DNA of 64,000 bases from an uncultured Gammaproteobacteria bacterium (GTDB lineage Bacteria > Patescibacteriota > Patescibacteriia > Magasanikbacterales > UBA922). Every line of letters starts with the position of its first letter. Position 1 is the first letter of the stretch. The position numbers were made by a program, and so were the translations under genes. The stretch spans positions 345,236-409,235 of the forward strand of contig CAYMVY010000001.1 in NCBI GenBank assembly GCA_964394405.1, given 5' to 3'. The notes below the pieces were generated by a model. The model made no database searches. It was not told where the DNA came from and was given only the letters and a program-made list of their open reading frames with translations. Positions 18,444 to 36,522 of the stretch are shown here, one piece after another.

Positions 18444-18560
18444 TGAAAACTTAAATGTCAAAACTTAAAACTATAACTAAAAATTTAAAACTAGTTATTG
18501 AATTTAAAGTTTTTAGATTTAAGTTGCGGTTTTGACTTTTGAGTTTTACGTTTTGAGTCC
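18444..18560. repeat. AT-rich palindromic intergenic repeat (AAACTCAAAAC family), copy 3
   Basis: aaaacttaaatgtcaaaacttaaaactataactaaaaatttaaaac ... aaagtttttagatttaagttgcggttttgacttttgagttttacgttttgag. Confidence 0.55.
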
Positions 18561-18567
18561 GAATACT

Positions 18568-20142
18568 ATGTCTAAAACACAAAAACAACCTAAACAAATA
18601 CCATCCCCTACAGTCCTCATTATTCTCGATGGATTTGGTCTGGCTCCTGAGAAAAACGAAGGGAATGCGATTACCTCAAAAACCGCGCCGAATATTTTTG
18701 GGTATCTAAAAAAATATCCAAATTCAAAACTCAAAACTTCTGGTGAGCAGGTGGGACTGTTTCCCGGACAGATTGGAAATTCTGAGGCAGGACATTTGAA
18801 TATTGGAGCAGGAAGAATTGTAAAACAGGATTTGGTCTGCATTTCAGATTCAATCCATGATGGGACGTTTTTTAAAAATGAAGCATTCAAGCAGGCGCTC
18901 TTCCATGTAAAAAAATATAATTCCGCTGTTCATCTCATGGGACTTCTGACAGATGGGAATAGTGCCCACTCATATCCTGAACATGTCTACGCATTGCTTG
19001 AACTCTGCCGGAGAGAAGGAATTGACCGAGTGTATCTGCATCTATTTACTGATGGTCGTGACTCGGGCCCCCATGCAGCGGCTACATATTTGCATGAACT
19101 TCGTGGTCACATGCTCCATACTGAAAAAATTGCGACTATCATGGGTAGACTGTATGGCATGGATCGAAATAAAATATGGAGTCGTACTGAAGCCGCATAT
19201 GAAGCTATGGTCATGGGTATAGGGCACAAAGTAGCGAGCGCGGAAGAAGCTCTAGAGCAGGCGTATAATCGGGGAGAGACAGATGAATTTGTCACTCCAT
19301 CAGTCATGGTAGATGACAAGGGCAAACCGATTGCGTCAATCAATGACCATGATACTGTTATATTTTTCAATGCGCGGTCTGATCGTGCTCGTCAGATCAC
19401 CAAAGCATTTGTGCAAGATGACTTTAATAAACGGAATCCTGGGTCGTTCAAAAGAGTTAAAGTGCCCAAAAATATCAGATTTGTGGCGCTTACTGATTTT
19501 GGACCGGATCTTGAGCGAATACTCACCGTATTTCCTTCACCTGATGTGTACAATACCTTGCCTTTGGCACTTTCAAATTTTACACAAGTGTATATTGCAG
19601 AATCTGAGAAGTATGCACATGTTACCTATTTTATCAACGGTGGTTATGCTGAACCAGTCAATGGCGAAGATTGGATTAAAATAGAATCAAAGACAGTGGC
19701 TCATCATGATACCAAGCCAGAAATGGCAGCAAAAGAAATTACCAAAAAGGTTGTGGGACTGATGAAGAAAGACGCCTATCAGTTTTACTGTATCAATTAT
19801 GCGAATGCTGATATGGTAGGGCATACAGGCAACCTCAAAGCTGCAAAAACAGCAGTTACGACGATTGATACCTGTGTCGGAGAGATTGTTGATACGACCC
19901 TTGCAAAAGGTGGACAGGTGCTGATTGTCTCGGATCATGGTAATGCGGAAGAAATGAAAAATTTGAAAACAGGAGAAGTGGATACTGAACATAATCTGAA
20001 TCCTGTTCCCTGCATATTGATTCGCAATATAGTCAAGGGAATAAAATTGAAAGATGGTATTCTCGCAGATGTGGCGCCGACGATTATTAAAATGGTAGAA
20101 GGCAGGCAGCCACGAGAGATGACAGGTAAACCTTTATTTTAA
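18568..20142 (+). CDS. gpmI: 2,3-bisphosphoglycerate-independent phosphoglycerate mutase (iPGM), paralogue 1
   Basis: ILDGFG, GNSEAGHLNIGAGR (catalytic Ser), YANADMVGHTG and SDHGNAEE motifs. The track ORF begins 36 nt earlier at an upstream ATG. Confidence 0.9.
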   Translation: MSKTQKQPKQIPSPTVLIILDGFGLAPEKNEGNAITSKTAPNIFGYLKKYPNSKLKTSGEQVGLFPGQIGNSEAGHLNIGAGRIVKQDLVCISDSIHDGTFFKNEAFKQALFHVKKYNSAVHLMGLLTDGNSAHSYPEHVYALLELCRREGIDRVYLHLFTDGRDSGPHAAATYLHELRGHMLHTEKIATIMGRLYGMDRNKIWSRTEAAYEAMVMGIGHKVASAEEALEQAYNRGETDEFVTPSVMVDDKGKPIASINDHDTVIFFNARSDRARQITKAFVQDDFNKRNPGSFKRVKVPKNIRFVALTDFGPDLERILTVFPSPDVYNTLPLALSNFTQVYIAESEKYAHVTYFINGGYAEPVNGEDWIKIESKTVAHHDTKPEMAAKEITKKVVGLMKKDAYQFYCINYANADMVGHTGNLKAAKTAVTTIDTCVGEIVDTTLAKGGQVLIVSDHGNAEEMKNLKTGEVDTEHNLNPVPCILIRNIVKGIKLKDGILADVAPTIIKMVEGRQPREMTGKPLF

Positions 20143-20145
20143 TGT

Positions 20146-21723
20146 ATGTCACGACCAAAACCAGTAGTACTTGCTATACTTGATGGATGGGGAGTCGCAC
20201 CAGCAAGCGACGGGAATGCGATTGAGCGAGCCCTGACGCCGAACATGGATCGTTTTGTACGCGAATACCCAGCCATGACACTCTATGCTTCGGGGAATGA
20301 AGTAGGTTTGTCATACGGAGAAATGGGGAATTCAGAAGTAGGACATTTGAATATCGGTGCTGGTCGCGTATATTATCAGACCTTTCCTCGGATCAATAAA
20401 ACTATTGTTGATGGAACATTTTCTCAAAACAAGGCATTTTTGAGTGCAGTAGAACATGTTCGTGAACATAAATCGAGTCTGCATCTGGTAGGCCTGGTGA
20501 GTCCGGGAAACGTACATGCGAGCCAGGACCATCTCTATGCGTTGCTAGAATTTGCCAAGAAAAATAAAATTAAGAATGTGTTTGTACATGCGATTCTTGA
20601 TGGAAGAGACACGCTGTATAATAGTGGCAAAGATTTTATTGGAAAACTAGAAGAGAAGATGAAAAAGATTGGAGTGGGTGAAATTGCGTCGTTGTCGGGG
20701 CGTTATTATGCAATGGACCGTGATAATCGATGGGATCGAATCGAGCGCGCATATCGAGCGATGGCTGAAGGAGTTTCTGAGACATATCACAAAGATCCTC
20801 GTGAAGCACTCGATATATCATATGAAAAAAAAGTATATGATGAAGAATTCATACCAGTCGTGATTGGAAAAGAAGGGAAGCCCACTGCTCGGATTGAATC
20901 AGGAGACGCGGTGATCTTTTTTAATTTCCGCCCTGACCGTGCCAGACAACTCACCAAAGCATTTGTATTGCCTGGATTTGATAAATTCAAGCGTGAATAT
21001 CTGAAAGATTTGCTTTTTGTAACTATGACTGAATATGAAAAAGAAATTCCCGTCGTAGTCGCATATCCTCCAGTCGTCGTGCATAATTGTCTTGCAGAAG
21101 TAGTGAGTAAAGCGGGGCTCACCCAATTCCACGTGGCAGAAACAGAAAAATACGCGCATATTACGTTCTTTTTGAACGGCACAGTCGAAGAACCTTTTGA
21201 AGGGGAAGAGCGTGCAATTGTACCTTCTCCAAATGTATCTTCGTATGATAAGGCACCAGAAATGTCGGCTGCAGAAGTTACCAAGAAAGTAATTCATGCA
21301 ATTGAATCAGACGCATATGACGTGATTCTGGTAAATTATGCGAATGCTGATATGGTGGGACATACCGGAGATCGTGACGCCACGATTACTGCATGTGAGG
21401 CAGTAGACAAAGGGCTGGGTAAAATTGCTGAATATGTAGAAGCAAAAGGTGGGGTGCTTCTTATCACTGCTGATCATGGAAATGCTGAGGAAGTGGTGAA
21501 TTTGAAGACCGGTGAAAAAGACAAGGAGCATAGTAATAACCCAGTACCACTACTTATTATTGGGAAAGAATTCAGAGGACACGCAGGTCCGGGCGGTGAC
21601 GCTCCTGAGGGTGACTTGAGTCTGGTGCATCCTGTCGGAATTCTTGCTGATGTAGCGCCGACTGTATTAAAAATTCTTGGACTTGAGCAACCGCCGGAGA
21701 TGACGGGGAGATCGTTGATATAA
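20146..21723 (+). CDS. gpmI: 2,3-bisphosphoglycerate-independent phosphoglycerate mutase (iPGM), paralogue 2
   Basis: ILDGWG, GNSEVGHLNIGAGR, YANADMVGHTG and ADHGNAEE. It starts 4 nt after paralogue 1. The two proteins share the catalytic motifs but are otherwise divergent. Confidence 0.9.
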   Translation: MSRPKPVVLAILDGWGVAPASDGNAIERALTPNMDRFVREYPAMTLYASGNEVGLSYGEMGNSEVGHLNIGAGRVYYQTFPRINKTIVDGTFSQNKAFLSAVEHVREHKSSLHLVGLVSPGNVHASQDHLYALLEFAKKNKIKNVFVHAILDGRDTLYNSGKDFIGKLEEKMKKIGVGEIASLSGRYYAMDRDNRWDRIERAYRAMAEGVSETYHKDPREALDISYEKKVYDEEFIPVVIGKEGKPTARIESGDAVIFFNFRPDRARQLTKAFVLPGFDKFKREYLKDLLFVTMTEYEKEIPVVVAYPPVVVHNCLAEVVSKAGLTQFHVAETEKYAHITFFLNGTVEEPFEGEERAIVPSPNVSSYDKAPEMSAAEVTKKVIHAIESDAYDVILVNYANADMVGHTGDRDATITACEAVDKGLGKIAEYVEAKGGVLLITADHGNAEEVVNLKTGEKDKEHSNNPVPLLIIGKEFRGHAGPGGDAPEGDLSLVHPVGILADVAPTVLKILGLEQPPEMTGRSLI

Positions 21724-23008: not shown

Positions 23009-23122
23009 CAGTGCGGTTTTTGAGACTTTTTGCGTGGTGCAAAGCCCATAATTGAGCCAGATTTAGCCTAATTCTTGCTAAATATAGAAGAGTACGATAG
23101 AATTTTAGGTATACTGAACTTT

Positions 23123-26100
23123 ATGAAAGAACGAGAACTGCCCAAAGCTTACGAACCGCATATATACGAGGATAAGATCTATACACGCTGGGAAAAAGGC
23201 GGTTTTTTTGCGCCTGAGAGCATTCCAGGGTGGGTCAAGGACGATACGAAGAGAGAGTCTTTTAGTATGGTATTACCTCCTCCAAATGTGACTGGAACCC
23301 TCCATATGGGTCATGCGGTCATGCTCGCAGTACAGGATGTGATGGCGCGCTATCATCGGATGAAGGGTGACAAAACCCTCTGGATTCCAGGAACCGATCA
23401 TGCCGCAGTCGCAACTGAGTCAAAAGTAGAAAAAATGTTGATTGAAGGCGGAATGAAAAAACCAAAAGCAGAGCTGGGGCGTGAAAAATTTTTGAAACAC
23501 GTGGAAAAATTTGCGAGTGAATCGCATGACACTATTGTGAACCAAGCAAAAAAAATGGGGGCGTCCCTCGATTGGTCTCGTGAAGCATTTACTCTCGATA
23601 AAGCACGAAATACTGCAGTAAATACCTTATTCAAAATGATGTACGATGACGGGCTTATTTATCGAGGATACCGAGTAATCAATTGGTCAGTCAAAGGGCA
23701 ATCCACCTGCAGTGATGATGAATTGGTCTATGTCGAGCGACCAGGGAAATTATATTATTTCACATACGGACCAGAATGTCCGATTACGATTGCGACAACG
23801 AGACCAGAAACTAAGCTCGGGGATACGGCAATTGCAGTGAATCCAAAAGGAAAATGGAAAAAATATATTGGAAAAACTTTTGTTATAAAAAACTTCGGTC
23901 AAACCGGACATGTTTTAAATTTGAAAGTAATTGCAGATGCGGGAGTTGATGACACATTTGGTACCGGAGCTCTCGGGGTCACTCCGGCGCATAGCCAGAC
24001 TGATTTTGAAATCTATCAGAAGAATAAAGATATTGGTTTGATTCAGGTAATTGGCGAGGACGGGAACATGACTGGTAATGCTGGAAAAGCATATGCAGGT
24101 TTAACAGTTGAAGAAGCCCGAAAGAAAGTAGTTGCGTGGTTGGAAAAGCAAAAACTGCTTGAGAAAACTGAAGATACGATGCAGAATGTGGGAACCAGTG
24201 ATCGCTTCGGTGATGTTGTAGAACCATTACCAAAAACTCAATGGTTTATTGAGGTGAATAAAAAAGTAAAAAGTAAAAACGCAAAAGTAAAAAGTTTTGA
24301 GGGTAATTTGAGTTTGAAAGAGCGGATGCAGCGAGCAGTTCGTGATGGTCATATAAAAATTATCCCTGAGCGATTTGATAAAACCTATTTTCATTGGATT
24401 GATAATTTACGTGACTGGAATATTAGTCGACAGATTTGGTATGGACATCAGATTCCGGTGTGGTACTGCAGAGAAAGTAAAAAGGAAAAAGGTAAAAGTA
24501 AAAACTGTGGCGAAATGTTTGTGTTAACAGAAAAACTTACCCAGTGTCCGAATTGTGGAGGTAGTGTTGAACAAGATTCAGACACACTCGACACGTGGTT
24601 TTCTTCAGGTTCGTGGACATTCTCTACACTTGGTTGGCCCACGACTGAAGTTCAGTTTATTCGTCACGGTGAGGCAGAAAATAGTGTAGAGAAAATAGTA
24701 AGTGATATTAATGATCGAAATGTATACAACCTCACGAAAAAAGGCGAAAAACAAATTCAAGAGTTGGCAAAAATAATGAAAAATAAACCAGAAGTTATTA
24801 TTACTTCCCCAATCGCTCGAGCGAAAGAAACTGCTGAGATTTTGAGTAAGAAATTAGGGAGTACTCTTGTTGAAGATGCACGAATTCGAGAAGTCGGAGT
24901 GGGGGAGTTCAATAGTAAAAGTGAAGATGAATTCGATGAATTCCGTGCAGGCAACAACTGGATGAAGAGTAATCCAAAAGGGATTGAGTCTTATGTTTCA
25001 ATGCGTAAGCGCACCCATGAATTCATGGCAGAAATTCTTGAAAAATATCGAGGTAAACGGATTGCAATTGTTTCGCATGGTGACCCGATTGAAGTTATGA
25101 AGCAATTCGGTACTGAAGTCTATACCAATGAATGGGATATCCAGGATCGGGGCACTCTCGAAACCCGAATGTTTGGCTCTGATAATAAGCAGAATGATGA
25201 TCTTGAAGTATTTCATCCCACCTCAGTTCTTGAAACCGGTTATGATATTCTCTTCTTCTGGGTTGCGCGCATGATTCTCATGAGCACCTACGCACTTGGT
25301 GAAGTACCATTCAAGACCGTCTATCTTCATGGTCTGGTACGTGATGAAGAAGGGAGAAAAATGAGCAAGTCTCTCGGGAACATTATTGATCCTCTCGACA
25401 TGATCAAGAAATATGGAACTGATGCAACCAGACTTTCACTTCTCATTGGCGGAACACCGGGGAATGATATGCGATTGTCAGAAGAAAAGATCGCAGGCTT
25501 TAGAAATTTTACGAATAAACTATGGAATATTAGCCGATTCATGTTGTTAAATATTGAAAAGCCAGTAAGAGATATCAAACAACCTAAGGCAAAAACAGCG
25601 GCAGATGAATGGATTTTGTGGAAATTAAACGAAGTTGTATCAAAAATGAATACATCATTTGATGCATATCAATTCTCAATTGCTGGTGAAACATTGCGTG
25701 ATTTTACCTGGGGAGAGCTTGCTGACTGGTATCTGGAAATTGCAAAAGTGGAAGGTGAGAAGAGTGAGATACTAAATTATATTTTGAATACCATTCTCAA
25801 ACTTTGGCATCCCTTCATGCCCTTTGTCACTGAACAAATATGGCAGGAAATATATGGTGGAACAATGCTTATAGTAGAAGAGTATCCAACAATAGAAAAA
25901 AGCAAGAAAAAGACAAGTGATGTAGTGTTTGTTGATACAACCCTTCGAAATATTATCACCAAGATTCGTTCAATTCGCACTGAATACAAGATCGAGCCAG
26001 CAAAGAAAATAATAGTGAGCATGAAAATGAAAGGCACAAACACATTACTCAAAGAATATTCGCCAGTGTTGATTCGATTGGCAGGGCTCGAAACTATTAC

Positions 26101-26377
26101 ACATGAAAAGATTGAAAAAGCTGTTTCATTTATTGAATCTGGAATAGAGGTAGACATAGATTTGAGCAGTGCAATCGATACGAAGAAAGAAAAAATACGA
26201 ATCGAAAAAGAGATCGCGAGTGTTGAACCATATGTAATACAACTTGAGAAAAAATTAGCAAACAAAGAGTTTGTAAAAAATGCGCCAAAAGCAGTGGTTG
26301 AGATTGAAAAAAAGAAGCTAGAAGAAGCGCGGCAGAAACTAGAGTCATTGAATGGGCAGTTAAAACAACTAACCTAG
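23123..26377 (+). CDS. valS: valine--tRNA ligase with an inserted histidine-phosphatase-like domain
   Basis: Class I HIGH region (PPPNVTGTLHMGHA), CP1 editing domain (TTRPET, GTGALGVTPAHSQTDFE), KMSKS, and C-terminal coiled coil. An in-frame insertion of about 184 aa at nt 24645-25195 carries FIRHGEAEN ... IAIVSHGDPI. Two Lys-rich micro-insertions are also present. The track ORF starts at a TTG at 23075. The ATG at 23123 (MKERELPKAYEP...) matches ValRS N-termini. Confidence 0.9.
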   Translation: MKERELPKAYEPHIYEDKIYTRWEKGGFFAPESIPGWVKDDTKRESFSMVLPPPNVTGTLHMGHAVMLAVQDVMARYHRMKGDKTLWIPGTDHAAVATESKVEKMLIEGGMKKPKAELGREKFLKHVEKFASESHDTIVNQAKKMGASLDWSREAFTLDKARNTAVNTLFKMMYDDGLIYRGYRVINWSVKGQSTCSDDELVYVERPGKLYYFTYGPECPITIATTRPETKLGDTAIAVNPKGKWKKYIGKTFVIKNFGQTGHVLNLKVIADAGVDDTFGTGALGVTPAHSQTDFEIYQKNKDIGLIQVIGEDGNMTGNAGKAYAGLTVEEARKKVVAWLEKQKLLEKTEDTMQNVGTSDRFGDVVEPLPKTQWFIEVNKKVKSKNAKVKSFEGNLSLKERMQRAVRDGHIKIIPERFDKTYFHWIDNLRDWNISRQIWYGHQIPVWYCRESKKEKGKSKNCGEMFVLTEKLTQCPNCGGSVEQDSDTLDTWFSSGSWTFSTLGWPTTEVQFIRHGEAENSVEKIVSDINDRNVYNLTKKGEKQIQELAKIMKNKPEVIITSPIARAKETAEILSKKLGSTLVEDARIREVGVGEFNSKSEDEFDEFRAGNNWMKSNPKGIESYVSMRKRTHEFMAEILEKYRGKRIAIVSHGDPIEVMKQFGTEVYTNEWDIQDRGTLETRMFGSDNKQNDDLEVFHPTSVLETGYDILFFWVARMILMSTYALGEVPFKTVYLHGLVRDEEGRKMSKSLGNIIDPLDMIKKYGTDATRLSLLIGGTPGNDMRLSEEKIAGFRNFTNKLWNISRFMLLNIEKPVRDIKQPKAKTAADEWILWKLNEVVSKMNTSFDAYQFSIAGETLRDFTWGELADWYLEIAKVEGEKSEILNYILNTILKLWHPFMPFVTEQIWQEIYGGTMLIVEEYPTIEKSKKKTSDVVFVDTTLRNIITKIRSIRTEYKIEPAKKIIVSMKMKGTNTLLKEYSPVLIRLAGLETITHEKIEKAVSFIESGIEVDIDLSSAIDTKKEKIRIEKEIASVEPYVIQLEKKLANKEFVKNAPKAVVEIEKKKLEEARQKLESLNGQLKQLT

Positions 26378-26441: not shown

Positions 26442-26816
26442 ATGGATAAGAAAAAGCAAAATCTCATGTGGTGGCTCGTAGGTATTCTTGTTTTGGCGGG
26501 GATTATCGCGCTTGCAGTCTACAAGAAAAATCAGCCAGGACAGTACGATACCTTTGCTGCATGTATCAAAGATAGTGGAGCAATATTTTATGGCGCGTTC
26601 TGGTGTCCGCATTGTCAATCGCAAAAAGCGTTATTTGGAAAATCGAGCAGACTACTCCCATACGTAGAGTGCTCTACTCCAAGCAAATCACAGACAAAGG
26701 CATGTGATGACGCGGGAGTGACTTCGTATCCGACTTGGAAATTCAAAGATGGAAGTGTAGTGACTGGACAGCAATCATTCCAGCAACTAGCAGAGAAAAC
26801 AAAATGTGAAATATAG
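26442..26816 (+). CDS. membrane-anchored thioredoxin-fold protein with CPHC active site (DsbA-like thiol:disulfide oxidoreductase)
   Basis: N-terminal TM (LMWWLVGILVLAGIIALAVY) and the FWCPHCQ CxxC motif. 124 aa. Confidence 0.55.
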   Translation: MDKKKQNLMWWLVGILVLAGIIALAVYKKNQPGQYDTFAACIKDSGAIFYGAFWCPHCQSQKALFGKSSRLLPYVECSTPSKSQTKACDDAGVTSYPTWKFKDGSVVTGQQSFQQLAEKTKCEI

Positions 26817-26828
26817 TTTAATAAAAAT

Positions 26829-27845
26829 ATGGAGACACTAAGTCCTGGAGCTGCTGAAGTAGATATTTCTGCGTCAGAATTTGCAAAGCAGGAAAAAACA
26901 AAACGAGTTATCAGTGAAATTACCCGTATTCGTGAGTTGTATCATCAAATATGCAACATAGACCAGAAAGTTGCAGCATATAAATCAAAGGTTGGCGCAT
27001 TGCGAGATGACGAAGAAGTGCCAACTGAGTGGGTTGAAGATATGCGAAAGATTGTACATGCTGATCCACATAAAGTGGAAGATTTTATGATGCCGCCCGG
27101 AGCTTTATTTGCTGAAATATATGGGCGTAACATAAGTCATGATATCAAAAACATACAACAGCGGTTAGTTTTTTATCAATTCGCAATTGATTCTCTCGAA
27201 GATGGTGATCTAAGACAATTTGTGAATGATTGGGAATACGCGGCAGCAAATTGGGAAGCGTATTACTATACCATGCTCGATTATGCGGCTCGTGCAAAAA
27301 ATGTGATTGAAGGTGGCAAAGGGGACATTATCGATCCTCGGGTACTGGAGACCGAAGGAAAAAAAGTCGATGCACGTGAATTGTTGGATGTGCTGATAAG
27401 ATTTATCAAAGATAGAACCAAAAAACATGAGGGAGTATCAGTTCACTATCCAGATTCTTTGCCGGATAATATAGTTGCCGATATCGCACCAGGGGTTGTG
27501 TTTAATAAATTAGCGAATATTTTATTAAATCCTATCCGAAAGACTGATACGATCCGGGCAAAAAATGTCTGGATTGAAGTGTCTGTAGACGGTGAGGGTG
27601 AAAAGAAAAATCTGGTAATTACCGTGAGTGATGATGGAATTGGGATGGATGAGGAGATAAAGAGTCATATTTTTGAAGGTGGCTTTAGCACTACCAAAGG
27701 TAAAGGTATTGGTCTTGCATATGCAGACACGCTTTTTAATCAAATGAATTGTACAATACATGTCGAAAGTAACCCTGCGTCTGATCGGGCAGGAAACGGT
27801 GAAGTGCATACCACGTTTACTGTCGTGATTCCGCTTTCTGCTTGA
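26829..27845 (+). CDS. histidine-kinase-like ATPase (HATPase_c) domain protein, soluble
   Basis: The C-terminal region has an N-box (LANILLNPIRKT), G1 (VSDDGIGMD) and G2 (GKGIGL). It has no TM segment and no clear DHp His box. Confidence 0.55.
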   Translation: METLSPGAAEVDISASEFAKQEKTKRVISEITRIRELYHQICNIDQKVAAYKSKVGALRDDEEVPTEWVEDMRKIVHADPHKVEDFMMPPGALFAEIYGRNISHDIKNIQQRLVFYQFAIDSLEDGDLRQFVNDWEYAAANWEAYYYTMLDYAARAKNVIEGGKGDIIDPRVLETEGKKVDARELLDVLIRFIKDRTKKHEGVSVHYPDSLPDNIVADIAPGVVFNKLANILLNPIRKTDTIRAKNVWIEVSVDGEGEKKNLVITVSDDGIGMDEEIKSHIFEGGFSTTKGKGIGLAYADTLFNQMNCTIHVESNPASDRAGNGEVHTTFTVVIPLSA

Positions 27846-30788: not shown

Positions 30789-31280
30789 ATGTTTTCGCTC
30801 ATAAAACAGATATTATCCGATGTCCGTGAAGCCCATTTATCAAAATGGGTATTTAGGTTGATTCTCGTGTGTGCGAGCATCGGCTTTCTTGATGCGACAT
30901 ATTTATCCATAGAGCATTTACTTGGGGTACTGGGGGGAGGAGATGGGTCAGTAAATTGTATCGTAGGGTCTTCGGGAAGCTGCAATATCGTGCTTCAGAG
31001 TATTTATTCTGAAGTATTGGGAATCCCACTCTCATATCTCGGACTGTTCTACTACGCTACGATTCTCACTATCGTCATACTACTGTATAAAAGACGCAAT
31101 ATACGTCTCTGGCATCTATTGCAGGGAATCATCGCATTTGGATTTGTGACCAGTCTCTATCTTGTCTATCTGCAGCTGTTTGTGCTCTATACGGTGTGCC
31201 CGTATTGTATGCTCTCAGCTGCAATGTCAGTACTCATGTTTGGGGGTGTAGTGTGGCAGAGAGTTAAAAATCGTATATGA
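30789..31280 (+). CDS. vitamin K epoxide reductase (VKOR) family membrane protein
   Basis: Four or five TM helices, a loop Cys pair (CIVGSSGSC) and CPYC in the last TM helix, which is the VKOR CxxC active site. Confidence 0.65.
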   Translation: MFSLIKQILSDVREAHLSKWVFRLILVCASIGFLDATYLSIEHLLGVLGGGDGSVNCIVGSSGSCNIVLQSIYSEVLGIPLSYLGLFYYATILTIVILLYKRRNIRLWHLLQGIIAFGFVTSLYLVYLQLFVLYTVCPYCMLSAAMSVLMFGGVVWQRVKNRI

Positions 31281-32389
31281 AAATCCCCGAATTTATTTCA
31301 CTTGCGGATACTAAAAAAATAGAGGGTCTGAGGTCAATAGGTGTTATTATACGTGATGAAATACGAAGTCAGACTGATGAATTATGCGAAATACGCAATC
31401 CACAACTTCGTGATACTCCAGAGGAGTTTGGTCAAAAAAAAGATGAGTTCTTTAAAAACTATCAATCTGAAAGCGTGTACTGTTACTTACCATGGCGAAA
31501 CATTTGTATCCGAATACTTTCCAAAGAATTGTATCATGAATTACATACAGCGCGGAATAAGAATCTAATTACAAAAGACGAACAAAAAAATTTTAGAGAA
31601 GCTCGAGTTGCGATTGCTGGTATGAGCGTGGGGAGTAATATCGCGCGAGTATGTGCTATGCAGGGCGGTCCCTGGCGCCTGAGTTTGGCTGATGCTGATA
31701 CGTACAGTATTTCAAATTTTAATCGGGCACTGGGGGGTATCCATTATATCGATGTCAAAAAGGTAGAGGCAGTCACCGAGCAACTATATGAGATTGATCC
31801 ATTTTTACAGGCCAGTACATTTTCAGAGGGCATAACAGAAACAAATCTTGAGGAGTTTATGACTCTTGATGGTAAGCCAGTGGACATACTTATTGAAGAA
31901 ATCGATTCGCTCACAATTAAAATTGCATTACGTAAATATGCAAGTGCACATCGTATTCCAGTGGTTAGTATTACGGATAATGGGGATGGTGTCTTGGTAG
32001 ATATCGAGAGATATGATGAGGACTATACATTTGAGCAGTTTATGGACCGGTTAAAAGAGGTGAAATTGGGAAATACAGGCGAAAGACCCCGCATCCAAGA
32101 TATTGCACGTGCCGTTACCAATTTTATTGGAGCAGAAGACATTGAGACACGGATGCTCGATTCAGTGGCTCATGTGGGGAAGGATTTATATTCATGGCCA
32201 CAGCTCGGGAATGCTGCAATATTGGCAGGGAGTGTAGGTTCATTTGCAATCCGACATATTGCAAATGGTGGACTCAAAAAAAGTGGTAGAATAGCGATTT
32301 CGCTTTCAAAGATTTTTGGTATCTTTGATAGTGATGAGAAAGAACGAAGAGAATCTTTATTATCGTATTATCATTATGAAAAAAAATAA
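31277..32389 (+). CDS. ThiF/MoeB/E1-like adenylyltransferase-fold protein with an N-terminal extension of about 110 aa
   Basis: Rossmann motif VAIAGMSVGSNIARVCAMQG followed by LSLADADTYSISNFNR, the E1/ThiF signature (D-x-D ... N-L-N-R). 370 aa. Confidence 0.6.
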   Translation: MKIPEFISLADTKKIEGLRSIGVIIRDEIRSQTDELCEIRNPQLRDTPEEFGQKKDEFFKNYQSESVYCYLPWRNICIRILSKELYHELHTARNKNLITKDEQKNFREARVAIAGMSVGSNIARVCAMQGGPWRLSLADADTYSISNFNRALGGIHYIDVKKVEAVTEQLYEIDPFLQASTFSEGITETNLEEFMTLDGKPVDILIEEIDSLTIKIALRKYASAHRIPVVSITDNGDGVLVDIERYDEDYTFEQFMDRLKEVKLGNTGERPRIQDIARAVTNFIGAEDIETRMLDSVAHVGKDLYSWPQLGNAAILAGSVGSFAIRHIANGGLKKSGRIAISLSKIFGIFDSDEKERRESLLSYYHYEKK

Positions 32390-33980
32390 AATAATTATTG
32401 ATGGTGAACACTTGGGACTAGAAGATGTGCATGTGGTGGCGCAGGATTTTGTGCAGGTTGCGGTTTCAAAAGAAAGCAAAAAAAAGATACATTTATCAAG
32501 AAAAATGGTTGATTCCGCAGTGGAAGACGAAAAAGTAGTATATGGAGTTACTACTGGATTTGGACCATTCGTCTCAGTTTTGATCCCCAAAAAATATCAG
32601 ACAGAGTTACAGGAAAATTTGATTAGAAGTCATTCAGCAAACGTAGGACCATTATTTTCTGTTGAAGAAACCCGAGCAGCTATGTTGCTTCGTGTTAACG
32701 CATTTTCAAAAGGATACTCAGGGGTGCGTCATGAATTGGTCGATTTACTCACTGAAATGTTAAATAAAAATATCCATCCATGTATTCCCCAGTGGGGATC
32801 AGTAGGAGCAAGTGGAGACTTAACACCATCATCACATATCGCTCTCGCTATGATGGGGGAAGGAATGGTTGAATATAAGGGTAATATAATTCCTGCAAAA
32901 GAAGCACTCACTCATGCGGGACTTACGCCAATACAGTTTAAGGCAAAAGAAGGGCTGGCATTGATAAACGGTACGACCATGATGACCGGTGTAGCAAGCC
33001 TTCAGTTATACGATTCGTGGAATCTTATAAAAAACGCAGAAATTATTAGTGCGTTATCGATAGAGGCATTACAAGGATCGATGGAGCCATTTTTACCTCG
33101 TGCGCATGCAGTAAAACCACATCCAGGACAGCTAAAGGTGGTTAAAAATTTAAATGCCTTACTGCGTGATAGTAAATTGGTTTGGAATTCAAAAGAAGTA
33201 GACCGTATCAAGAAAGAATTACAGGCAAGAATTAAAGAAAATCAAGAAGTTTTTGAATCCGGTGTACATGTGCAAAATGTCTATTCATTGAGAGCTGTGC
33301 CTCAGATACTTGGCGCTGTACGTGATGCACTTGAATATATAACCAGGCAAATTATTACCGAGATGAATTCAGCAAATGATAATCCGTTATTTTTTCCTGA
33401 TTTAGGTATTTCATACCAGGGCGCACATTTCCATGGACAACCAGTGGCTATTCCAATGGATGTATTATCAATTGTACTTACTGAGATTGGCGTGCTGTCA
33501 GAAAGACGTTTGAATAAAATTCTAGACCCAGTTCGCAATAATGGTCTTGCGCCTTTTTTGGCACGTGGAAAATCAGGTTTGCGCTGCGGACTGGAAGGTG
33601 CGCAATATGTTGCAACCGCACTTGTGGCGGAATGTCGGACTTTGTGTAATCCAGCGTCTATACAGTCTATTCCTTCAAATGGTGAGAATCAGGACGTGGT
33701 GAGTATGGGACTAGTTGCAGCGCGGAAAGCTCGCGATATAAAAGAAAAAATCGAGTATATTTTGGCAGTTGAGCTTCTCGGAGCGTGTGAAGCGATGGAG
33801 GAAAGAGAAAAGAAAAAAATGTCATCTGCAGGACGTATGGTCTATGACCTGGTTCGCAGAAAAATAAAACCATATGACTCCGATCAAATCATGCATACTA
33901 ATATTGAAGAGGTGCGAGACATGATTCATAGCGGAGCTTTAGTCTCTCTAATAGAGAAAAAGCTTAAAATTATTCTTTAA
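32376..33980 (+). CDS. aromatic amino acid ammonia-lyase/aminomutase family (HAL/PAL-type, MIO cofactor)
   Basis: GSVGASGDLTPSSHIA contains the Ala-Ser-Gly triad that forms MIO. The HAL/PAL fold is conserved throughout. The ATG at 32376 is chosen because the track ORF start overlaps the upstream gene. Confidence 0.8.
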   Translation: MKKNKIIIDGEHLGLEDVHVVAQDFVQVAVSKESKKKIHLSRKMVDSAVEDEKVVYGVTTGFGPFVSVLIPKKYQTELQENLIRSHSANVGPLFSVEETRAAMLLRVNAFSKGYSGVRHELVDLLTEMLNKNIHPCIPQWGSVGASGDLTPSSHIALAMMGEGMVEYKGNIIPAKEALTHAGLTPIQFKAKEGLALINGTTMMTGVASLQLYDSWNLIKNAEIISALSIEALQGSMEPFLPRAHAVKPHPGQLKVVKNLNALLRDSKLVWNSKEVDRIKKELQARIKENQEVFESGVHVQNVYSLRAVPQILGAVRDALEYITRQIITEMNSANDNPLFFPDLGISYQGAHFHGQPVAIPMDVLSIVLTEIGVLSERRLNKILDPVRNNGLAPFLARGKSGLRCGLEGAQYVATALVAECRTLCNPASIQSIPSNGENQDVVSMGLVAARKARDIKEKIEYILAVELLGACEAMEEREKKKMSSAGRMVYDLVRRKIKPYDSDQIMHTNIEEVRDMIHSGALVSLIEKKLKIIL

Positions 33981-33990
33981 TTTTTGACCT

Positions 33991-35457
33991 ATGTATACCC
34001 GTGTTCATCAGCTTCAAAAAGATTTAAGAACACGGGATGATCATTTTTGGTTGGATCTGGGGCAAAAACAAGCATTGAGAGTATTTCATAAATCAGCAGA
34101 ACACACACCCGCGTATAAAGATTTTTTGTTGAAAAATGGAATTAAAAATCATAAAAAAATTAGAACTTTTAAAGATTTCATACAGTACGTTCCAGTGAGC
34201 GATAAAGAGAATTACATCAAAAAATATCCAATCAGTGAGTTATGTTATGGGGGAAATCAAGCTGAAGGGAGTATCATTTCTCAAAGTTCAGGAACCATTA
34301 CTGGGAAATCATCTCTATGGCCCCGCTTTAAAAATAGTGAAGAAAGAAGTGGTTTGTTACACGAAGTGTTGTTGAATGAATTTTTTAAACACTCAAAAAT
34401 CAAAACTCTGTATGTAATTTGTTTTCATTTGGGATCACATATTGCAGGATTTATTACGGCTACAAGTATTAGGGAAGTAGTGTACAAGACATCGAAAGGT
34501 ACACTCATGACGCCAGGGCTTGATAAAAAAGATATACTTACAGTACTAAAGAAAGTTTCCCCGCACTACGAGCAGACAGTTCTTATTGGTTATCCTCCTT
34601 TTCTAAAAGATATAATGCGCGATGCAATAGAAGAGAAGATAAGAGTGAATAAATTGAATATTAAATATATTTTTTCAGCAGAGTCCTTTCCGGAGCATTG
34701 GCGTGACTATGTCCATGGACTAGCAGGATATGAGAAGGGGGTAGACTATGCGAGTATTAATATCTACGGTTCAGCTGATGTTGGTTTTATGGCGCATGAA
34801 ACACCAGCCATGATCCGACTACGCCGCCTATTAGCAGAGGATGAGAAGTCGTGCGAAGAATTGAGGATCACTCAAAGTTACATACCAGCATTGTATCAGT
34901 TCCATCCGTGGGCAATTTACTTTGAATCGATAAATAGAGAGTTGGTTTGTTCAGCTGATGCGGGTATACCATTAATACGGTATAATATAAAAGATTTCGG
35001 ACAGGTGTATTCGCTTTCACATAGTAAACAGATAAAAGAAAAAATATTTAATACTGATGACTGGGAGTTACCTATTATTTCAGTGTATGGCCGGAGTAAT
35101 TATAGTGCAACGATATACGGAGTTAATATCTACCCGGAACATATTAGGCAGATTATGACAACTGATGATTTTTTCTCTATTTGCAGTGGTAAATTTTTTT
35201 TGAAAACTACTTTTGGGAAAGAAGATGAGAATCTTGAAATCCATATGGAATTAAACCCAAGAACACGATTTGATAGCAACGTCAGAAGAAGATTACAAAA
35301 AAATATGGTCGAACATCTACAAAAGATTAACTTGGAATATAAAAAATTGTGTAGCGTGGTACAAAAAAAAGCTTACCCGAAACTCATAACCTACAAATTT
35401 GGGTCTCCCGAGTTCAGGGCATTAAAAATGAAGTACAAATATATTGTTACCAATTAA
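33991..35457 (+). CDS. PaaK-like adenylate-forming enzyme (phenylacetate-CoA ligase / F390 synthetase family)
   Basis: IISQSSGTITGKSS (SSGTTGK adenylation motif) and the family-typical N-terminal helical region. 488 aa. Confidence 0.65.
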   Translation: MYTRVHQLQKDLRTRDDHFWLDLGQKQALRVFHKSAEHTPAYKDFLLKNGIKNHKKIRTFKDFIQYVPVSDKENYIKKYPISELCYGGNQAEGSIISQSSGTITGKSSLWPRFKNSEERSGLLHEVLLNEFFKHSKIKTLYVICFHLGSHIAGFITATSIREVVYKTSKGTLMTPGLDKKDILTVLKKVSPHYEQTVLIGYPPFLKDIMRDAIEEKIRVNKLNIKYIFSAESFPEHWRDYVHGLAGYEKGVDYASINIYGSADVGFMAHETPAMIRLRRLLAEDEKSCEELRITQSYIPALYQFHPWAIYFESINRELVCSADAGIPLIRYNIKDFGQVYSLSHSKQIKEKIFNTDDWELPIISVYGRSNYSATIYGVNIYPEHIRQIMTTDDFFSICSGKFFLKTTFGKEDENLEIHMELNPRTRFDSNVRRRLQKNMVEHLQKINLEYKKLCSVVQKKAYPKLITYKFGSPEFRALKMKYKYIVTN

Positions 35458-35463
35458 TGCCGT

Positions 35464-36522
35464 ATGTATCATAAGATTGTACATATCTTAGAGACTGCTG
35501 TATACGCACCATCAGGTGAAAACTCACAACCATGGCGCTTTGAATTTTCTAAAGATGTACTTTCTGTATACAATCTTCCAAAAAGGGATAACGCTATTTA
35601 TAATTATCGTCAACGAGGTTCGTATATTGCGCATGGTGCATTAATACAAAATATCACTATTGCAGCACCATCAGTTGGGCTTATTCCCGAAGTTCACATG
35701 TTCCCGGATCATCATGATACTGACTTGGTTGCAAAAATTTCTTTTCGTGAAGCACGTCCGGTGAGTTCGGAATGGGTGTCTGTAATTAAACAGAGGTCTA
35801 CGAATCGGAAAAAATACAAAAATGAAAAATTAGATCAAGGAACCATAGAAAAACTCAAAAAAAGCACTGAAGACATTGGTCACTGCAAGGTATTGTTTAT
35901 TGAAGATTCTCGAACTATTACAAAAATGGCTTCGTGTATGAGTACTCCAGATAGAATCATGTTGGAATATAAGCCACTTCATGATACAATTTTTGGGAAC
36001 ATCTGCTGGACTGATACTGAGAATGAAAAAAGAAAAATGGGTCTTTTTGTAAAGACCATGGAACTTGCTCCTCCAGAAGAGGTTGTTTTCCGTCTTTTGA
36101 AGCATTGGCCAATTGCGCGGTTCGCACAGTTGATTGGACTCACTAAATTCATCTCACAAGAGAACGCAAAAAAATACAGTAGTGGCTCAGCGTATGCAGT
36201 ATTCGTGGTGGAAAATAAGGATTCTGACTATGTCTATGCTGGTATGGCAATGCAGCAACTTTGGCTCACTGCAATCACCTGTGGGCTAGTAGCCCACCCC
36301 CTCGCGGCACTCCCATATCTATATGAAAATATCCATAATGGTGGGGTGAGTGACCTTTCGGGCAAACATGTGGAACTCATAGACAATGCCTATAAGAGTC
36401 TGTCAGAGGTGTGTGCAATACCAGACTCACACAAAATAGCCATGATTCTCCGTATCGGGAAAGGTGATGCAGTACAAGCTGTGTCCCCCAAACTTAAACC
36501 AGAGATTACCATGCATACATAA
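35464..36522 (+). CDS. nitroreductase-family (FMN-dependent) protein, extended two-lobed form
   Basis: The N-terminal TAVYAPSGENSQPWRF is the nitroreductase FMN-binding signature. 352 aa is longer than the roughly 200 aa of classic nitroreductases, compatible with tandem or SagB-like forms. Confidence 0.6.
   Translation: MYHKIVHILETAVYAPSGENSQPWRFEFSKDVLSVYNLPKRDNAIYNYRQRGSYIAHGALIQNITIAAPSVGLIPEVHMFPDHHDTDLVAKISFREARPVSSEWVSVIKQRSTNRKKYKNEKLDQGTIEKLKKSTEDIGHCKVLFIEDSRTITKMASCMSTPDRIMLEYKPLHDTIFGNICWTDTENEKRKMGLFVKTMELAPPEEVVFRLLKHWPIARFAQLIGLTKFISQENAKKYSSGSAYAVFVVENKDSDYVYAGMAMQQLWLTAITCGLVAHPLAALPYLYENIHNGGVSDLSGKHVELIDNAYKSLSEVCAIPDSHKIAMILRIGKGDAVQAVSPKLKPEITMHT

Follow-up and report, generated by a model that had tools for sequence, protein, structure and literature searches.

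The window analysed here (the whole stretch of 64,000 nucleotides) contains four biosynthetic genes and a sensor kinase gene in close succession:

31277-32389, + strand: ThiF/E1-like gene (putative cyclase), 370 aa
32376-33980, + strand: MIO lyase/aminomutase gene, 534 aa
33991-35457, + strand: PaaK/GH3-fold ligase gene, 488 aa
35464-36522, + strand: nitroreductase-superfamily flavin oxidase gene, 352 aa
36527-38140, + strand: 7TM-receptor histidine kinase gene (HisKA_7TM, HisKA and HATPase_c)

A preliminary description of this DNA had listed the first four as co-directional ORFs with tight boundaries, and all were confirmed on the + strand at these coordinates, with a 14-nt overlap, then a 10-nt gap, then a 6-nt gap between them. 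The motifs that it quoted were also verified: GASGDL, with the MIO triad, at residue 144 of the lyase/aminomutase, the P-loop SSGTITGK at residue 99 of the ligase, and SGENSQPW at residue 17 of the nitroreductase-like protein. Upstream, a VKOR gene overlaps the ThiF-like gene by 4 nt. The longest ORF of the MIO gene begins at TTG 32316, and we preferred ATG 32376 as its start because it fits the lengths of homologues. For the kinase, the most likely start is ATG 36527, 4 nt past the oxidase stop.

We found 85 unique related CPR loci, whose core consists of a divergent PaaK-fold ligase, a ThiF-like protein, a flavin oxidase and a 7TM kinase. Since this gene set recurs across them in shuffled orders (at least 10), the clustering is not due to chance, and the four genes with the sensor kinase are an operon conserved across many bacteria of the ultra-small CPR/Patescibacteria. 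Where the ligase gene had 4.5 kb or more on each side (30 loci), its partners were ThiF (29/30), the kinase (25/30) and the oxidase (24/30). Fusions were of the types ligase-oxidase, ThiF-ligase, ligase-ThiF, dehydrogenase-ligase, dehydrogenase-ligase-ThiF and ThiF-oxidase; the ligase is fused with the oxidase in P0005, with ThiF in P0266 and P0267, and with an amino-acid dehydrogenase in P0354 and P0326.

The front-end gene lies upstream of the ligase gene, usually abutting it, and its type varies. Among 63 loci, 22 had a MIO enzyme, 15 an ELFV dehydrogenase similar to ScyB (Trp dehydrogenase), seven a class I/II aminotransferase and two a class IV aminotransferase, while a deaminating enzyme was absent from 17. 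The four types are mutually exclusive (0/63 loci with two types), and in all related loci bearing a MIO gene this gene is directly upstream of the ligase gene. At the other end of the cluster, the kinase (Pfam PF16927, PF00512 and PF02518) does follow the biosynthetic genes, as previously described, but it is more than the neighbour it was taken for: in 47 of 55 unique loci a co-directional orthologue comes immediately after them (median gap 9 nt), and no other partner of the module is as constant. Its sensor domain showed no co-variation with the type of front-end enzyme beyond phylogeny. No response regulator was found in the window; one flanks the cluster in 19 related loci.

The ThiF-like protein and the oxidase match TrzS (Rv1355c) far above other ThiF or nitroreductase families, which supports reading them as a split TrzS. 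TrzS is a mycobacterial fusion of a ThiF cyclase and a flavin desaturase that makes N-acyl oxazolones, and its cyclisation and desaturation of N-acyl-Trp were shown biochemically (PMC12856293). Against the NCBIfam model NF005901 (“Rv1355c family”), the ThiF-like protein scored 239 bits (E 8.5e-71), with residues 10-357 aligned to model positions 22-349; the runner-up ThiF family in NCBIfam reached 75 bits. The E1-like assignment holds, with Pfam ThiF (PF00899) spanning residues 94-231. The protein also has the N-terminal extension that had been noticed, although of ~90 rather than ~110 aa; since the Rv1355c-family model covers that region, the extension belongs to the architecture of this family. 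Its AF2 model has a pLDDT of 94.5, and a sequence search of the PDB gave TcdA as best match. Across 65 homologues, G115/S117/G119, D139, D141, N147, N149, R150, K162, E208, D210 and K215 are invariant; these include ATP-binding and adenylation positions, D210 being the proposed equivalent of TrzS D217, the adenylation Asp. We thus predict an ATP-dependent cyclase resembling the N-terminal half of TrzS and TyzB. In the oxidase, the nitroreductase-like assignment was weak in Pfam and strong in NCBIfam (PRK14851, 201 bits; Rv1355c family, 192 bits; Acg family, 132 bits), with residues 6-343 aligned to NF005901 positions 378-711, and its best PDB match was Acg of M. smegmatis (2YMV). It is predicted to be a flavin-dependent C-alpha/C-beta desaturase of the Acg/TyzC type. 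A CPR ThiF-oxidase fusion, L097, aligns to the same model over positions 11-645 (381 bits), which also speaks for a split TrzS. The earlier proposal that the E1-like and nitroreductase-like proteins form a functional pair is therefore supported, as they match the two halves of TrzS.

The MIO enzyme (Pfam Lyase_aromatic PF00221, 576 bits) passes the tyrosine 2,3-aminomutase model TIGR03832 (568 bits, cut-off 501), and is 44% identical to SgcC4/SgTAM (tyrosine 2,3-aminomutase, PDB 2OHY) across 516 positions. The ASG triad is present, as are the residues corresponding to SgTAM Tyr63, His93 and Tyr415, whereas the QED of HAL is replaced by NQD and HAL Glu414 by Gln. With 432 bits to SgTAM and 294 to P. 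putida HAL, it is, as judged by sequence, a tyrosine-type ammonia-lyase/aminomutase of the SgcC4/SgTAM kind and not a housekeeping histidase. The view that this is not a hut operon is supported. A second CPR subgroup of MIO enzymes resembles FlxA (TAL). Unlike SgTAM and FlxA (tyrosine ammonia-lyase), the MIO gene here lies outside an enediyne or flexirubin cluster.

The ligase had been called PaaK-like, which is clear at the level of fold but marginal by sequence (TIGR02155, 27.7 bits against a cut-off of 646), and the protein had no Pfam match. Foldseek with its AF2 model (pLDDT 91.2) retrieved BT_0428 and PaaK1/2 at E 1e-23, and among the other top matches were AjiA1, NatL2, ClxA, HCL and GH3 amido synthetases. 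The two-domain adenylate-forming fold is common to NatL2, AjiA1, ClxA and plant GH3 enzymes such as JAR1 (E 1e-18 to 1e-11), but identity to these is just 13-16%, and no Pfam model covers the ligase. Besides the P-loop, Lys481 is nearly invariant in homologues. Some CoA-independent PaaK-family ligases and GH3 enzymes are known to act on aromatic acids and to couple their acid directly to an amine or hydroxyl. From the modelled structure we predict a CoA-independent acyl-acid:amino-acid ligase of divergent PaaK/GH3 fold; the amide-forming role is suggested by fold and gene context, and a CoA ligase is a possible alternative.

Overall, the data support an accessory cluster for small-molecule activation and modification, as originally proposed, and we give about even chances to a five-gene operon whose product is an oxazolone derived from an N-acyl amino acid, or a closely related compound. 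The MIO enzyme would form 4-coumarate from L-tyrosine, whereas an aromatic or branched-chain 2-oxo acid would come from a ScyB-like dehydrogenase or an aminotransferase in other lineages. The PaaK/GH3-fold ligase would then adenylate the acid and couple it, without CoA, to an amino acid through the latter's amino group, thus replacing the acyl-CoA N-acyltransferase of known systems (OxzA/TyzA/TrzA). Judging from homology with TrzS, TyzB and OxzB, the ThiF-like enzyme may adenylate this N-acyl amino acid at its carboxylate, so that attack by the amide oxygen would give a 5(4H)-oxazolone, and by homology to TyzC and the C-terminal half of TrzS, the FMN oxidase may introduce a C-alpha/C-beta double bond. 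The kinase, placed in the same functional unit on account of its conserved, translationally coupled adjacency, would sense the product or regulate it.

Several points count against the oxazolone model. The N-acyltransferase that defines the known systems is missing, and no recurrent OxzA/TyzA-type acyltransferase was found in the related loci. Known desaturases require O2, while many CPR bacteria are anaerobic. Further such points are the 17 of 63 loci that lack a deaminating enzyme, the lack of co-variation of the kinase sensor domain with front-end type beyond phylogeny, the possible CoA-ligase role of the PaaK-fold enzyme, and the sub-cut-off NF005901 scores and the aminomutase match taken up below.

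The same enzymes might make another heterocycle or conjugate from the deaminated aryl acid; we consider this rather unlikely, taking jointly such products as an uncyclised enamide, a six-membered oxazinone from beta-tyrosine, and an ester- or thioester-linked compound. The CPR proteins score below the equivalog cut-off of NF005901 (476), with 239 + 192 bits for the two halves in the window and 381 bits for the L097 fusion, and they form a separate subfamily that could make a different ring. The top score of the MIO enzyme as an aminomutase also makes beta-tyrosine possible, which is incompatible with a five-membered oxazolone; however, the dehydrogenases and aminotransferases that interchange with it in sister loci favour the lyase outcome, as these alternatives all yield a deaminated acid and not a beta-amino acid. 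Distant ligase-oxidase pairs without a ThiF gene occur in Flavobacteriaceae and Saccharibacteria, and NatL2-type PaaK ligases, which match the ligase in fold, make esters. In the CPR clade, on the other hand, ThiF accompanies the ligase more constantly than any other partner, and the ThiF-like protein aligns end to end with the cyclase half of TrzS, with its adenylation residues invariant. TcdA, its closest solved relative by sequence, is a cyclodehydratase that likewise closes a five-membered ring (PMC12596934).

The E1-like protein and the nitroreductase-fold flavoprotein together recall TOMM/LAP systems (E1-like C-protein, YcaO D-protein, SagB B-protein), and had been compared to a C-protein with a B-dehydrogenase. 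In such RiPP-like tailoring, which we judge very improbable, an RRE-like N-terminus would let the E1-like protein bind or activate a precursor peptide, and the oxidase would be a SagB-type dehydrogenase. N-terminal RRE domains are common on ThiF-like proteins of RiPP pathways (PMC12596934), our protein carries an N-terminal domain, and PaaA appears among the structural matches. The comparison nevertheless fails: no YcaO was found in the 85 loci, small ORFs recur in at most four (as lineage-specific overlaps), and the 4-14 nt junctions are too short for a precursor gene; no precursor peptide was found. The TrzS-family model extends over the N-terminal region, and the substrate of TrzS is a small molecule (PMC12856293); the TrzS match is far better, the ATP site of the ThiF domain is intact, as predicted for a catalyst rather than a docking scaffold, and the oxidase matches Acg/TrzS-type families, with no SagB-type family at E <= 0.01 in NCBIfam. 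Catabolism or salvage, with the acid from a deaminated aromatic amino acid converted to a CoA thioester and ThiF, oxidase and kinase accessory or regulatory, appears improbable. It would suit the PaaK fold, the deaminating enzymes (typical first steps of amino-acid breakdown) and the kinase, as catabolic operons are often under two-component control; but no hydratases, thiolases or ring-attacking enzymes recur in the related loci, the sequence likeness to PaaK is marginal, and fusions tie the ligase to ThiF and oxidase, for which such a route has no use. We give hardly any credence to a ThiF-like protein engaged in sulfur-carrier or ubiquitin-like activation or ct6A-type tRNA modification beside unrelated neighbours. 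Generic ThiF, MoeB and TcdA matches, weak E1-E2 matches in PADLOC and adjoining aminoacyl-tRNA synthetase genes in this genome would fit, but the ThiF, MoeB and TcdA models reach only 30-61 bits, against 239 for the TrzS family, no ThiS/MoaD-like small gene recurs, the protein lacks zinc-binding CxxC pairs, the synthetase neighbourhood is confined to close relatives, and ThiF is fused to partner enzymes in other genomes.

Among the closest known systems is TrzAS (Rv1356c/Rv1355c; Mycobacterium, N-acyl tryptazolone), which also combines a ThiF-like ATP-dependent cyclase with an Acg-like flavin oxidase. Here, in contrast, cyclase and oxidase are separate genes with two others between them, a PaaK-fold ligase and a deaminating enzyme stand in place of a TrzA-type acyl-CoA N-acyltransferase, a 7TM kinase is attached, and the hosts belong to the CPR instead of the Actinomycetota. 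In TyzACB (Rv2336-Rv2338c, M. tuberculosis) the oxidase of the nitroreductase superfamily and the ThiF homologue are separate proteins, as here, whereas they are fused in OxzAB (Pseudoalteromonas rubra). Both systems convert an N-acyl aromatic amino acid to a 4-arylidene oxazolone (PMC10404671; bioRxiv 10.1101/2020.06.11.147165), TyzB/TyzC and OxzB cyclising and desaturating N-acyl-Tyr (PMC10404671; PMC12596934), and tyrosine-derived chemistry is plausible in this cluster too. Their transferase, which has an AHL-synthase-like fold, takes a fatty acyl group from acyl-CoA; in this cluster the predicted donor is an aryl acid that derives from an amino acid and is activated as adenylate.

In agrBDCA, cqsA-cqsS and luxM-luxN, signal-synthase genes are co-transcribed with, or lie beside, a polytopic membrane histidine kinase gene. 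Here too, small-molecule biosynthetic genes adjoin a multi-TM sensor kinase gene (4-nt gap), although the ligand-receptor relation is predicted from gene adjacency and the window has no response regulator. The product of the cluster could be a chemical signal, with the kinase as its paired receptor. N-acyl-amino-acid oxazolones are a recently discovered class of small molecules, and compared with the known systems these CPR bacteria would put a different front end before the established ThiF-cyclase and flavin-desaturase chemistry.

The cluster consists of four genes on the forward strand, with a sensor kinase gene behind them:

31277-32389, +, ThiF-like (E1-like) gene, 370 aa
32376-33980, +, MIO enzyme gene, 534 aa; the ATG at 32376 fits the lengths of homologues
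33991-35457, +, PaaK/GH3-fold ligase gene, 488 aa
35464-36522, +, nitroreductase-like flavin oxidase gene, 352 aa
36527-38140, +, sensor kinase gene; the ATG at 36527, 4 nt past the fourth stop codon, is the most likely start

The four co-directional ORFs lie exactly where the preliminary description placed them, and the motifs quoted there are found in the proteins. The first two overlap by 14 nt, 10 nt separate the second from the third and 6 nt the third from the fourth, and no gene of the cluster was left unassigned. No usable operon boundary within the cluster came from a promoter and terminator scan, in which promoter-like sites were fewer than the shuffled expectation. Pfam and NCBIfam backed the ThiF, aromatic-lyase and nitroreductase family assignments. 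The description of the third protein as PaaK-like held for the fold (using Foldseek), but only marginally for the sequence: the protein has no Pfam match, and it scored 27.7 bits against the PaaK equivalog TIGR02155, whose cut-off is 646.

The ThiF-like protein scored 239 bits (E 8.5e-71, model positions 22-349) against the NCBIfam model NF005901 (“Rv1355c family protein”; 722 positions, equivalog cut-off 476 bits), and the next ThiF family scored 75 bits. The oxidase matched positions 378-711 of the same model with 192 bits, and also PRK14851 and the Acg family (132 bits). The first and fourth genes thus match separate halves of NF005901, each corresponding to one half of a protein fused in mycobacteria; for a half-protein, the full-length cut-off is out of reach. 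A fused ThiF-oxidase protein from CPR bacteria (Patescibacteria; locus L097) reached 381 bits, still under 476. Since the CPR proteins score below the cut-off even when fused, we place them in a separate subfamily: judged by sequence, the ThiF-like protein is a homologue of the TrzS/TyzB/OxzB clade but not an NCBI equivalog. The protein is already on record with 100% identity (P0121).

The residues for nucleotide binding and adenylation (G115/S117/G119, D139, D141, N147, N149, R150, K162 and D210) are invariant in 65 ThiF homologues. In an alignment they match the corresponding motifs of TcdA, the closest solved relative by sequence and also a ring-closing ThiF enzyme. We infer that D210 is the equivalent of TrzS D217. 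The N-terminal extension of about 90 aa is covered by the TrzS-family model, and is therefore a feature of the family; with the whole ThiF-like model as query, the Foldseek alignment was confined to the ThiF core, leaving this domain outside. The best structural match was PDB 9EGB (Foldseek E 5e-14, TM 0.75-0.80 on the target), a 2025 entry for AclA of Tenacibaculum discolor titled “AclA in complex with substrate”. We found no paper on the function of this AclA; its structure may bear on the chemistry. For the oxidase, the closest solved relative was Acg of M. smegmatis, the reference also used for TrzS.

The AlphaFold model of the ligase, built with 60 homologues as input, had a pLDDT of 91.2. 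Its Foldseek matches were BT_0428, PaaK1/2, AjiA1, NatL2, ClxA and 2-hydroxyisobutyryl-CoA ligase, then plant GH3 acyl-acid amido synthetases. Judged from this model, the ligase shares with PaaK only the fold, and among its structural relatives are enzymes by which aryl acids are joined directly to an amine or a hydroxyl group. Only 446 family members represent it in a set of 1.84 billion proteins (clustered at 50% identity, E at most 1e-30), Pfam has no model for this small family, and nearly all homologues are from CPR bacteria: Magasanikbacteria, Yanofskybacteria, Nealsonbacteria, Spechtbacteria, Jacksonbacteria and Paceibacterota. Searching for the exact ligase sequence returned no database record; proteins from Candidatus Magasanikbacteria MAGs are 91-92% identical.

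In Saccharibacteria and Flavobacteriaceae, genes of distant ligase relatives (25-29% identity) adjoin an Acg-like flavin oxidase gene, with no ThiF gene (loci L013, 3839-6362; L017; L018; L019, 5796-8374; L022; L023; L025). The ligase-oxidase pair is thus able to stand alone. In L019, a gene of the penicillin-amidase family (N-acyl amidase) lies just upstream.

The MIO enzyme shares 44% identity with SgcC4/SgTAM, a tyrosine aminomutase, to which it scores 432 bits versus 294 bits to the histidase (HAL) of P. putida; residues equivalent to SgTAM Tyr63, His93 and Tyr415 are present. It exceeded the cut-off of the Tyr 2,3-aminomutase model TIGR03832 (568 versus 501 bits), and barely that of the hutH HMM (544.6 versus 539). 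All 20 MIO proteins from CPR clusters have NQD where histidases have QED. We take the Gln of this motif to fall at P. putida HAL Glu414, the residue that a histidase needs for imidazole binding, so that the MIO enzyme would lack it. With the Gln at this position, the higher SgTAM score and hut genes in none of the loci, a hutH histidase was rejected. The earlier view that this is not a histidine-utilization operon is borne out: rather than a housekeeping histidase among unrelated neighbours, we find a tyrosine-type MIO enzyme with conserved partners. The context favours a lyase rather than a mutase outcome.

Across 63 unique loci with sequence upstream of the ligase gene, exactly one amino-acid-deaminating enzyme was found in 46, mostly abutting the ligase gene: an MIO lyase (22), an ELFV-family amino-acid dehydrogenase (15), a class I/II aminotransferase (7) or a class IV aminotransferase (2). 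No locus of the 63 had two of these types together, and 17 had no recognisable front-end enzyme. For the ELFV dehydrogenase the nearest relative is ScyB, which acts as tryptophan dehydrogenase in scytonemin biosynthesis (250-288 bits, versus about 70 for glutamate dehydrogenases). The class IV aminotransferase is IlvE-like, and a second CPR subgroup of MIO enzymes lies nearest to FlxA, the tyrosine ammonia-lyase of flexirubin. The exchange of lyase, dehydrogenase and aminotransferase between loci argues for a deaminated carboxylic acid as their shared output. This would be 4-coumarate in the window. In other loci it would be a 2-oxo acid, aromatic where the dehydrogenase is ScyB-like and, provided that the IlvE-like enzyme is representative of class IV, branched-chain there.

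The related loci were gathered by look-up of five diverse ligase homologues and by scans of genome and metagenome collections; a single-protein genome scan gave mainly distant non-CPR relatives, and an alignment-based metagenome scan supplied the loci needed. All their ORFs were then searched with the window proteins, which gave 85 unique loci of the CPR type. Thirty of these extend 4.5 kb or more to either side of the ligase gene, and their flanks contained the ThiF-like gene in 29, the kinase in 25, the oxidase in 24 and an MIO gene in 11. Gene order varied: ligase, ThiF, oxidase, kinase (11 loci); oxidase, ThiF, ligase, kinase (7); ThiF, MIO, ligase, oxidase, kinase (6); oxidase, ligase, ThiF, kinase (4); and others. 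Such shuffling excludes simple inherited synteny; tRNA-synthetase, bactofilin, DAG-kinase and VKOR neighbours are kept in close relatives only. In addition, independent fusion proteins of six types connect every component.

Fusion proteins among the homologues
Ligase-oxidase: P0005, 837 aa
ThiF-ligase: P0266
Ligase-ThiF: P0267
Dehydrogenase-ligase: P0354
Dehydrogenase-ligase-ThiF: P0326, 1242 aa
ThiF-oxidase: from locus L097

Some CPR versions carry extra domains. In L096/L099 (8521-10551) the oxidase is fused to a domain that has no Pfam hit and whose “NAGCGAM” motif we read as SAM-methyltransferase-like; in L043 (1791-2882) this domain stands by itself. In L100 (9561-11450) the oxidase is joined to an alpha/beta-hydrolase. 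These may be accessory tailoring domains.

Oxazolone formation has been demonstrated for the fused mycobacterial protein. TrzS (Rv1355c) converts N-acyl-tryptophan to N-acyl tryptazolone: its ThiF half catalyses an ATP-dependent cyclisation, lost in the D217A mutant, and its flavin oxidase half the subsequent O2-dependent desaturation, impaired by R540A (Kleetz et al., PMC12856293). TyzB/TyzC of M. tuberculosis (PMC10404671) and OxzB of Pseudoalteromonas rubra (bioRxiv 10.1101/2020.06.11.147165; review PMC12596934) are known to catalyse the same chemistry; by the count of a 2025 review, OxzB is the sole validated non-RiPP ThiF-like enzyme. ThiF-dependent oxazolone biosynthesis was discovered in 2021-2025, and its discoverers liken oxazolones to acyl-homoserine lactones.

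Like the OxzAB, TyzACB and TrzAS systems, the cluster has a ThiF-like cyclase domain with intact ATP-binding and adenylation residues, and in CPR loci an Acg-like flavin oxidase is adjacent to or fused with it. Unlike them, the CPR loci have no adjacent acyl-CoA:amino-acid N-acyltransferase of the OxzA/TyzA/TrzA type, and no acyltransferase-like family was found among the recurrent neighbours of the 85 loci. We propose that in the window the MIO enzyme would supply 4-coumarate as the deaminated acid, and that the ligase would join it to a second amino acid independently of CoA, dispensing with an acyl-CoA N-acyltransferase of that type. By homology, the ThiF-like enzyme would then close the ring of the N-acyl amino acid in an ATP-dependent step, and the flavin oxidase would introduce the C-alpha/C-beta desaturation; known oxazolone desaturases require O2. 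The predicted product is a 4-ylidene-oxazolone derived from an N-(4-coumaroyl)-amino acid. Oxazolone chemistry by a ThiF-like enzyme plus oxidase is already known; we found no literature linking CPR/Patescibacteria, a ligase-type front end or a kinase to it, and none that connects CPR/Patescibacteria with the present cluster.

The most serious rival to this pathway keeps the enzymes but has them make another, related product. Other explanations seem unlikely. The cluster had been likened to a RiPP tailoring locus, which would be of the TOMM/LAP type; however, no YcaO-like protein is a recurrent neighbour in the 85 loci, the small ORFs (20-75 aa) of related loci yielded no conserved or recurrent precursor candidate, and a precursor gene would not fit into junctions of 4-14 nt. 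Nor is the ligase likely to serve a catabolic PaaK route, since recurrent downstream catabolic genes are absent and the ligase is elsewhere fused to ThiF and to the oxidase. A role of the ThiF-like protein with a ubiquitin-like protein (Ubl), in sulfur transfer to a carrier or in tRNA modification is also unlikely, given scores of 30-61 bits to such families versus 239 to the TrzS family, and no carrier gene.

A known anti-phage defence system was also considered and rejected, with no PADLOC system match. Hits of the PADLOC defence models to the E1-like protein were generic and weak (at most 35 bits), those to the HATPase were weak, and the MIO enzyme, ligase and oxidase had none.

The proposed oxazolone pathway is closely associated with the kinase (HisKA_7TM, HisKA and HATPase_c): in 47 of 55 loci the kinase gene is co-directional with the biosynthetic genes and comes after the last of them, a median of 9 nt away. 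From this adjacency we infer that the kinase belongs to the same unit as the biosynthetic genes; the adjacency also suggests that it may sense their product. Comparing the sensor domain with the front-end type, regressed on kinase-domain and ligase identity, left a residual of about zero; this null co-variation test was uninformative. No response regulator was found in the whole 64-kb window, and single-domain response regulators flank the cluster in 19 other loci. We give a rather low probability to the further idea that the operon comprises synthase and receptor of a CPR small-molecule signal, an oxazolone derived from an aromatic amino acid, produced independently of CoA and fatty acids and sensed by the 7TM kinase.

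Several other features of the window were observed. Upstream of the cluster, a VKOR-family membrane protein gene (30789-31280, +) runs 4 nt into the ThiF-like gene; it is adjacent in close relatives only (L001, L003, L010 and L011), and is thus probably outside the module. A thioredoxin-like CPHC protein is encoded 4 kb upstream (26442-26816, +). The valyl-tRNA synthetase (23075-26377, +, 1100 aa) has a phosphoglycerate-mutase-like His_Phos_1 domain (“RHGE”) inserted between its catalytic halves, also present in the close relative L001 and absent from the ValRS of L003 (895 aa) and L004 (919 aa). Between the ValRS and TyrRS genes lies the gene of a soluble 338-aa protein (26829-27845, +) with HATPase_c as sole domain and no HisKA or TM detected, a location kept in Magasanikbacteria relatives. 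A glycolytic run with GAPDH, PGK and enolase includes two tandem paralogues of cofactor-independent phosphoglycerate mutase (18532-20142 and 20146-21723, +). Finally, a GC-rich island (54061-55470, -; GC 0.574 versus about 0.42 for the window) contains a 469-aa ORF with the motif GIGPMISARIIVAIGDIRRFETKEKLKAFLGVH, which reads like an IS110-type transposase, and tRNAs lie nearby (56706-56777 and 56832-56904, -). The island is probably a recently acquired mobile element.

If the proposed pathway is correct, ThiF-dependent oxazolone chemistry would reach CPR bacteria, hosts of minimal biosynthetic repertoires, and N-acyl amino acids would be made there by a new group of PaaK/GH3-fold ligases that needs no CoA and is supplied by deaminating enzymes of four interchangeable types. 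The pathway would be tied in most lineages to a dedicated membrane sensor kinase, so that a defined kinase would make the purpose of oxazolones directly testable. If the tentative synthase-receptor reading also holds, the operon would give these ultra-small, often episymbiotic bacteria their own means of cell-cell or symbiont-host communication. The cluster would be among the few conserved specialised-metabolite operons of CPR bacteria, offering a handle on their interactions with hosts or neighbours, and may represent a dedicated pair of small molecule and sensor.
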